Shown: piece after piece, positions 2,425-2,590 of the stretch | Position numbering within the stretch: position 1 is the first letter of the stretch | Layout: every line of letters begins with the position of its first letter | Assembly: GCF_030013205.1 (NCBI RefSeq) | Contig: NZ_CP122648.1 | Length of the DNA stretch: 64,000 nt | Direction: 5' to 3' (one strand) | From: Escherichia coli | GTDB taxonomy: Bacteria > Pseudomonadota > Gammaproteobacteria > Enterobacterales > Enterobacteriaceae | Position numbers and translations under genes: made by a program | The notes under the pieces: model-generated | The model's input: only the letters and a program-made list of their open reading frames with translations | Databases searched by the model: none | What the model was told of the DNA's origin: nothing

Positions 2425-2590
2425 ATCGAGATGGCAACTGAATGAGTCCCCAGGAGCTTACATTAAGTAAGTGACTGGGGTGAGTGACAAATCTGTCCGG
2501 AACAGATTTGAACACCGTGTAACGGTGGCCCGTAAGGGCGAGGCTCATGGATGAGCCGAGTAACTAGCAGCCAACGAAGAGGCAGTTTGA
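2425..2590. repeat. ERIC/IRU-like intergenic repeat with nested hairpins
   Basis: Core at ~2443-2487 (gagtccccaggagcttacattaagtaagtgactggggtgagtg) matches the remembered ERIC1R/ERIC2 primer sequences; flanked by further perfect hairpins (aaatctg/cagattt, gccc-gtaa-gggc). Boundaries approximate. Confidence 0.6.

Follow-up and report, generated by a model that had tools for sequence, protein, structure and literature searches.

A long-form ERIC repeat with an RtT-like internal module at the acpH start codon of Escherichia coli

The divergent genes queA and acpH lie 295 bp apart (positions 2310–2604) in a stretch of 64,000 nucleotides of the Escherichia coli contig NZ_CP122648.1 (assembly GCF_030013205.1), hereafter called the window, and a repeat rich in hairpins fills most of this spacer. 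What is this repeat, where does it begin and end, and does it serve acpH, which encodes the acyl carrier protein phosphodiesterase, as a regulatory leader? The original prediction, made from the letters of the sequence, had recognized an ERIC-like copy between positions 2425 and 2590, in the 5' region of acpH and within a spacer of about 295 bp, and had considered and then dismissed a structured regulatory RNA. The best explanation of the whole region is in our opinion that positions 2401–2605 (plus strand) form a complete long-form ERIC (also named IRU), a miniature inverted-repeat element, and we give this reading a probability of about 0.85. The element measures 205 bp including the TA dinucleotides at both termini, and consists of a 128-bp ERIC and a 77-nt internal module.

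ERICs are described as elements of about 127 bp with a 7-bp terminal inverted repeat (TIR), TA termini, a target duplication and transcripts that fold into long stem-loops (PMC2229807, PMC3184786). In the window we found the length, the core, the TIR with its TA ends, the dispersed multicopy nature and the intergenic position. The central core (2442–2486, plus strand) was recognized with the ERIC1R and ERIC2 primer sequences taken from PMC3696847: the reverse complement of ERIC1R matches 20 of 22 positions at 2442–2463, and ERIC2 matches 21 of 22 at 2465–2486. Within the core, CCCCAGGAGCTTAC (2448–2461) pairs with GTAAGTGACTGGGG (2467–2480) to form a hairpin. A single copy of the core is present in the 64 kb of the window, where 0.01 would be expected by chance. 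The core quoted in the original prediction is present, and its identification as a copy of ERIC stands. The 127-bp unit is multicopy, with 59,324 places found by BLAST in 5,425 E. coli genomes and a median of 12 per genome.

The limits of the element were obtained from inverted-repeat analysis and from alignment with other strains. The left TIR, TATACAC, is located at 2401–2407 (plus strand), with TA at 2401–2402 as the left terminus and putative target duplication, and the right TIR, GTGTATA, at 2599–2605 (plus strand), its final A (2605) being also the A of the acpH ATG. The outer arms of the ERIC (27 nt) are 74% complementary, and the right arm GCAGCCAACGAAGAGGCAGTTTGAAGGATGAA (2567–2598, plus strand) pairs with the left arm (2408–2440) in the minimum-free-energy structure. 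The plus strand folds with −84.2 kcal/mol (z = −7.7 versus shuffled sequence), and for the minus strand z is −8.4. When the module is removed in silico, 128 bp are left, in agreement with the palindrome of about 127 bp typical of ERICs. Strain 104 is identical across the element, ATCC 11775 carries the ERIC without the module, and K-12 has an empty site. The outer arms belong to a diverged ERIC subfamily, TATACAC...GTGTATA versus TATACCC...GGGTATA, both ends having changed together. The extent of 2425–2590 proposed earlier was thus too narrow, and the acpH start codon does not lie about 15 bp past the repeat but begins with its last base. The placement of the repeat in the 5' region of acpH and the spacer length were correct.

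A survey of 5,426 complete E. coli genomes revealed three alleles at this locus, in line with the expectation that ERIC copies vary between strains. About 4,603 genomes (85%), among them K-12, O157:H7, W and CE10, have no ERIC and a spacer of 92 bp. A 127-bp ERIC with a 218-bp spacer, counted by means of a 50-nt junction-specific probe, is present in 682 genomes (12.6%), including ATCC 11775 and Nissle 1917. The 204-bp form with a 295-bp spacer, as in the window, was found in 139 genomes (2.6%). K-12, with which the original prediction had proposed to compare the interval, is without ERIC, so the interval is not identical in all strains.

The additional hairpins of the element are contained in the RtT-like internal module (2488–2564, plus strand), delimited by the gap that opens against the short allele directly after GGGGTGAGTGA. 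Four hairpins were found where two had been announced: H1 at 2488–2510, H2 at 2513–2527, H3 at 2528–2539 (with a GTAA loop) and H4 at 2542–2557. They are joined by the invariant linkers GAUUUGAAC, GCGAGG and CGAGUAA. Contrary to the original prediction, the match to ERIC does not explain them: they make up a 77-nt module of their own, which neither the canonical 127-bp ERIC nor the 127-bp allele of 682 genomes contains. In E. coli the module was detected in 142 of the 5,426 genomes, at one place each; 139 of these copies are at the acpH locus and three diverged copies are elsewhere. The window element is of an already known kind: ERICs with structured insertions of about 70 bp were reportedly described in 1997 by Cromie, Collins and Leach and by Sharp (Mol Microbiol 24:1311–1315).

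A degenerate pattern built from the three linkers, GATTTGAAC...GCGAGG...CGAGTAA, was run on representative genomes and matched at least 120 stretches, with many copies per genome and mainly in Enterobacterales. Among the matches listed are Yersinia, Dickeya, Serratia, Pectobacterium, Klebsiella, Citrobacter, Enterobacter, Sodalis and other genera, and in 104 of 123 copies among these listed matches the right arm of the ERIC core stands immediately 5' of the module. The flanking ERIC motifs are 83–88 nt apart in long forms and 11 nt apart in short forms. In 111 distinct copies, 94.8% of the cells at the proposed pairs are paired, compared with 28–43% when the partners are slid by 1–3 columns; compensatory change was seen in 11 of the 25 module pairs (141 cells), and none of 500 shuffles reaches the observed values. 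Flanking open reading frames (ORFs) were delimited by a crude ORF caller; between co-directional ones, 26 copies of the module read in sense and 10 in antisense. More than one RtT-like module can be present: two or three, all oriented alike, were seen in some ERICs of Klebsiella, Dickeya, Yersinia and Pectobacterium (L096 276–354 and 402–487; L046 2495–2573, 2580–2659 and 2692–2776), and one such module site is located in the left arm, TTGCA(A/G)G|ACAAA...GAGTAAC|GCGGCAA. From these multi-module copies it follows that ERICs can be composite. One of the copies elsewhere in E. coli, that of isolate 38I23CPO002 (NZ_CM148361.1; L004 1380–1700), is a diverged long ERIC with a module 77% identical to that of the window. 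It is located upstream of pgi, between this gene and a truncated adhE pseudogene, in a foreign-looking segment. As adhE and pgi are presumably not neighbours in K-12, this suggests that the segment was rearranged or imported.

Is this module found outside ERICs? Three further matches to the linker pattern are located outside ERICs and beside tRNA genes, in metagenome-assembled genomes (MAGs) of Zetaproteobacteria, Gammaproteobacteria and unclassified Pseudomonadota. These RtT-type elements (L108 1996–2123, minus strand; L104 7057–7195, plus strand; L073 1939–2141, plus strand) have the same three linkers as the ERIC module. Since the linkers are identical in such distant MAGs, the module is much older, and spread far more widely, than the Enterobacterales. 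When scored with the Rfam RtT model (RF00391, gathering score 45), the Zetaproteobacteria copy obtained 66.1 bits and the Gammaproteobacteria copy 44.5 bits. In the other direction, a covariance model built solely from ERIC-borne modules (R1) gives 88 bits to the window copy and also detects a tandem RtT-type copy without the search pattern (40 bits). Of the four rtT units that follow tyrT/tyrV in K-12, R1 detects three, as full-length matches on the strand of the operon with 17.5–19.2 bits, and these three matches fall inside Rfam RtT hits of 133–137 bits; the next unrelated match has 7.6 bits. When seven RtT-type sequences were aligned with the window copy (alignment A3), the proportion of paired cells was 94.1% and compensatory change was seen at 13 of 25 pairs, in an alignment that is model-fitted and hence leans towards the model. 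The window copy also resembles AaHKsRNA22 (RF02902), and ERIC-borne copies of Serratia and Dickeya score 45.5 and 42.2 bits with this model, above its gathering score of 39.8.

From these likenesses it is concluded that the internal module of ERIC shares a core with RtT and AaHKsRNA22 and belongs to, or is closely related to, this family of structured elements. More tentatively, and at somewhat less than even odds, we propose that the insertions of long ERICs represent copies of an ancient RtT-family module with four helices, and that this module is mobile or spread by recombination and has a conserved function at the level of RNA or single strands. The module would then occur in three settings: in tandem behind tRNA genes in Proteobacteria, as an annotated small RNA in Pasteurellaceae, and nested one to three times, at fixed positions, in the ERICs of Enterobacterales. 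On the other side stand several observations on the module and its kinship. The window copy gave zero hits with the Rfam RtT model at E ≤ 10 in 2200–2750 or 2470–2580. With AaHKsRNA22 it obtained 29.1 bits (E = 3.5e-4, 2479–2574), below the gathering score, in a search of 111 nt, and an Rfam scan of 551 nt gave noise only. By curated criteria, the window copy is not a member of RtT or of AaHKsRNA22. The K-12 matches of R1 have E-values of about 1e-4 to 5e-4 in 102 kb, which are rough, and the three matches are paralogous and count as one independent observation. Moreover, mismatches in the module helices are equally often G-U (52) and A-C (56); therefore the structure is not demonstrably selected on this RNA strand as opposed to DNA or the other strand. 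The setting in the window also differs from that of RtT: no tRNA was found by a scan of positions 1–8000, and the sequence that follows the module is the ERIC right arm, not a tRNA-like acceptor with a CCA tail. The rtT RNA, which has no known function, arises by processing of the tyrT transcript. In the searchable literature, outside of which the key papers of 1997 and 2006 fall, we found no statement of a link between ERIC and RtT; the link may already be known.

What could such an element do to acpH (2605–3186, plus strand)? The start at the ATG of 2605 is the choice of PGAP in identical genomes. The only Shine-Dalgarno-like sequence for this gene is AAGGA at 2590–2594, 10 nt before the AUG and within the ERIC right arm. 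The leader of acpH and its ribosome-binding site would thus now be supplied by the ERIC. Because the element abuts the ATG, transcripts from any acpH promoter that predates the insertion would include, as their leader, the element in its full length of about 200 nt. According to the predicted ensemble, the mean unpaired probability over −16 to +5 is 0.35–0.45 for ERIC leaders versus 0.72 for the K-12 leader. The long ERIC stem, made of right and left arms, may bury both AAGGA and AUG, and translation of AcpH could then require that the hairpin be opened or processed, as has been proposed for transcribed Yersinia ERICs in a model where ribosomes, RNase E and the conformation of the hairpin influence one another. 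The predicted occlusion is equal for long and short alleles, the 77-nt module being without effect, and therefore the ERIC and not the module would limit the access of ribosomes. We consider an occluded, ERIC-derived acpH leader likely. A consensus scan of 2200–2700 for sigma-70-like promoters and terminators called none, which counts against this view. ERICs are co-transcribed with neighbouring genes and affect mRNA stability via RNase E in an orientation-dependent manner, according to the accounts that PMC2229807 and PMC3184786 give of De Gregorio 2005. The element appears to be a selfish repeat with side-effects on its neighbours rather than a dedicated regulator.

One other possible start was considered for acpH. 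The in-frame ATG at 2551, which has GAGG (2540–2543) 7 nt upstream and would add 18 residues, was rejected: it lies within hairpin H4, and PGAP uses the canonical start. A mini-ORF of 4 codons extends from the ATG at 2594 to the TGA at 2606–2608, so that its end and the ATG of acpH overlap as ATGA. Both this mini-ORF and the context of the ATG at 2551 come from the consensus sequence of ERIC and module. A −10-like hexamer is found just 5' of the acpH ATG in empty alleles of E. coli (TATAAT-cg-ATG), and the corresponding sequence in the window is CATAAT (2394–2399). The counterpart in Yersinia thracica (L020 11980–12180) reads TATACT-cagcgg-ATG. In strains without ERIC the acpH mRNA might accordingly be very short or leaderless.

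On the other side of the spacer, the queA-tgt-yajC-secDF operon has a candidate promoter on the minus strand at 2342–2370, TTGCAG-N17-TAGACT. Its hexamers and the 17-nt spacing are kept between E. coli and Yersinia thracica, while the sequence between the hexamers differs. A consensus scan left this candidate uncalled, as 7 of its 12 positions match. The left end of the ERIC is about 67 bp upstream of the putative queA start site, and the insertion would have displaced by 203 bp the DNA upstream of about −67. The acpH start is covered by a FIS-like site, GCTAAAAAATTCATC, which would be near −73 in K-12 if the candidate is the tgt/sec promoter. In the window strain this site would be 203 bp further from the queA promoter, with its last base altered. 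According to its title, a paper by Slany and Kersten in 1992 reportedly concerns a FIS-binding upstream activating sequence for the promoter on the queA side. The displaced DNA probably includes this published activating region, a view weakened by the fact that we infer the position of the site.

How did the three alleles arise? The element would have entered a sub-lineage of E. coli and come to lie precisely against the 5' side of the acpH start codon. When an empty site was reconstructed from the left flank, one TA and the right flank, its alignment to each empty genome covered exactly 188 bp. Occupied and empty alleles therefore differ in length by the element plus one TA and by nothing else, which makes 126 bp for the short ERIC and 203 bp for the long one. 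The window element has TA at both ends. In Yersinia thracica, acpH and queA form a divergent pair as well, and their spacer of 142 bp contains no ERIC. The opposite history, with the ERIC or its long form ancestral here, a precise loss of it in most E. coli, and a 127-bp allele that came from the 204-bp allele by deletion of the module, is in our view unlikely, though it has to be taken seriously. No other E. coli module copy is able to serve as donor, the members of this right-arm subfamily found in Pseudocitrobacter, Citrobacter and Enterobacter are of the long form, and palindrome-induced deletions of ERIC figure in the literature (Sharp and Leach 1996, known to us as an entry in a reference list). 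Long and short alleles are each found on both flank haplotypes. However, the exact empty sites and the empty Yersinia locus favour gain over loss of the whole element. The two alleles differ by a clean 77-nt block and two junction substitutions, and the junction of the short allele is the canonical 11-nt junction of other short ERICs, not what a simple slippage deletion predicts. Indeed, such a deletion between GAGTGA and GAGTAA was tried and fails to reproduce the observed junction. Nevertheless, because of the lack of a donor in E. coli, the long relatives elsewhere and the occurrence on both haplotypes, it is conceivable that the module was lost, or that a short ERIC from another place in the genome replaced the long form by conversion. 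A point against the putative duplication of a TA target is that the empty sites sampled, those of K-12, O157:H7, F1022 and CE10, read TCGATG where TCTATG would be expected. No empty site with the flanks of the occupied allele, which would point to a recent excision or insertion, was found, every single-piece match having at most 94.2% identity. The left flank of the insertion (2381–2400, plus strand), TTGATGGATGACATAATC in the window versus TTTGGATAGAATATAATC in empty alleles, is strongly diverged over its 20 nt. This stretch, which holds the −10-like hexamer at 2394–2399, was the ribosome-binding region of acpH before the insertion, and it is plausible that the divergence stems from loss of constraint afterwards.

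With insertion of a selfish repeat as the favoured history, a function for its hairpins may still be sought at three levels. The cluster could be a dedicated cis-regulatory leader of acpH, similar to a riboswitch or an attenuator, as it lies directly 5' of this gene in sense orientation, folds very stably (z = −7.7) and has GNRA-type loops and co-varying helices. This is highly improbable, and the idea is essentially refuted by distribution: the module is present at the locus in just 139 of the 5,426 E. coli genomes, 97% being without it and 85% without any ERIC, it occurs in more than 120 unrelated intergenic contexts of other genera and also upstream of pgi and ybtA, and Yersinia acpH has no such leader. 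In addition, the predicted access to the ribosome-binding site is unchanged by the module, and no terminator/anti-terminator pair was found in 2200–2700. The structured-RNA idea was therefore rightly abandoned as far as a regulator specific to acpH is concerned, but it was set aside too quickly in view of the four covarying helices and their RtT and AaHKsRNA22 kin. The module might instead be an independently expressed or processed small RNA acting in trans, like rtT or Aggregatibacter sRNA 22, with ERIC merely as vehicle. The excess of sense over antisense copies between co-directional genes (26 versus 10, with crude ORF calls) is in its favour, whereas no promoter or terminator was called at its flanks in 2200–2700, G-U pairs are not in excess over A-C, most E. 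coli do without the module and rtT itself has no known function; we regard this as quite improbable. Slightly less probable still is that the element works as DNA between the two divergent promoters, by forming a cruciform, binding a protein or buffering supercoiling. Both strands fold equally well, the helix mismatches are strand-symmetric, and the element lies between divergent promoters, beside the FIS-dependent upstream activating sequence reported in the title of Slany and Kersten 1992. On the other hand, the orientation of the module is modestly biased towards sense, and no DNA motif of ERIC besides the TIRs is reported in PMC2229807.

The genes around the element are arranged as follows. 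Downstream of queA (1239–2309, minus strand) the ORF list gives tgt (56–1183, minus strand), and acpH, defined by the ORF list and by the RefSeq annotation of identical loci, is followed by malZ. Positions 2300–4900 are 100% identical to the porcine enterotoxigenic E. coli strain ETEC4079 and 99.9% identical to O139:H1 strains. The AcpH protein of the window is 99.0% identical to that of K-12 and 96.4–96.9% identical to those of strain 104 and ATCC 11775, although a side comparison assigns to these two strains the same ERIC allele as the window. The first 40 nt of acpH show four synonymous differences from K-12, strain 104 and ATCC 11775. Because AcpH is closer to K-12 than to the strains sharing the ERIC, and because of these synonymous differences, the acpH locus looks recombinant. 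Between acpH and malZ the window has a low-GC islet of about 1.65 kb (3187–4851, 33–42% GC) that holds a single ORF of 485 residues (3207–4664, minus strand), annotated as hypothetical protein, for which a Pfam scan found zero families above the cut-off. About 1,126 of the 5,426 E. coli genomes have the islet; in K-12, ATCC 11775 and strain 104, which lack it, 4 bp separate acpH from malZ.

As for the meaning of these results, the locus itself is of minor importance, being occupied by a selfish repeat that varies between strains and whose kind was already known in 1990–1997. It is nevertheless a clean three-state marker (85% empty, 12.6% short ERIC, 2.6% long ERIC) and a natural experiment, with one start codon behind three leaders and one queA promoter with its upstream region at three distances. 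If the one-family reading is true, the polymorphic acpH copy offers a trio of alleles (empty, ERIC, and ERIC with module) for testing the function of the module. If this reading is both true and unreported, three separately named elements would be one structured-RNA family with no known function, and ERICs would be composite.

The closest known relatives of the element are the ERIC, IRU or RU-1 repeats, reportedly described by Sharples and Lloyd in 1990 and by Hulton, Higgins and Sharp in 1991. The window copy has in common with these repeats the imperfect palindrome of 127/128 bp once the module is removed, the ERIC1R/ERIC2 core and the 7-bp TIR with TA ends, and like them it is intergenic, multicopy and variable in presence from strain to strain. 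It differs in holding the 77-nt internal module and in its diverged outer-arm subfamily. The insertion-bearing ERICs of 1997 are alike in having an insertion of about 70–80 bp at a fixed internal site, well folded by itself; two or three tandem modules, as seen here in some ERICs, set the latter apart from them. A long ERIC is also located between ybtP and ybtA of the yersiniabactin island on 167 Salmonella pESI-like plasmids. As in the window, it is a long form between divergent genes, in sense to the downstream gene, and its module is 87% identical, but locus and host are others and its arms belong to the canonical subfamily. The transcribed Yersinia ERICs, as summarized from De Gregorio et al. 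2005, resemble the window element in a position that forces co-transcription with a flanking gene, in the long hairpin and in the ribosome-binding sequence of the right arm. According to the same summaries, they lie between co-transcribed genes and RNase E cleavage acts on the upstream cistron, whereas the window ERIC is a predicted 5' leader. With AaHKsRNA22 (Aggregatibacter sRNA 22), the whole model (1–101) aligns and the order of hairpins is the same; the window copy stays below the gathering score, and the status of free-standing small RNA is a feature of AaHKsRNA22. Finally, compared with RtT RNA (RF00391; the 178-bp repeats of the tyrT operon, rttR of K-12), the window module is nested in an ERIC and not behind a tRNA, and is without an adjacent tRNA, the enclosing RtT stem, the extra 5' hairpin and the tRNA-like CCACCA tail. 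The two nevertheless share the succession CGAC, H1, GA(A)C, H2, CCC-GAA-GGG, CGAGG, H4 and CGAGUAA, and detection works both ways.

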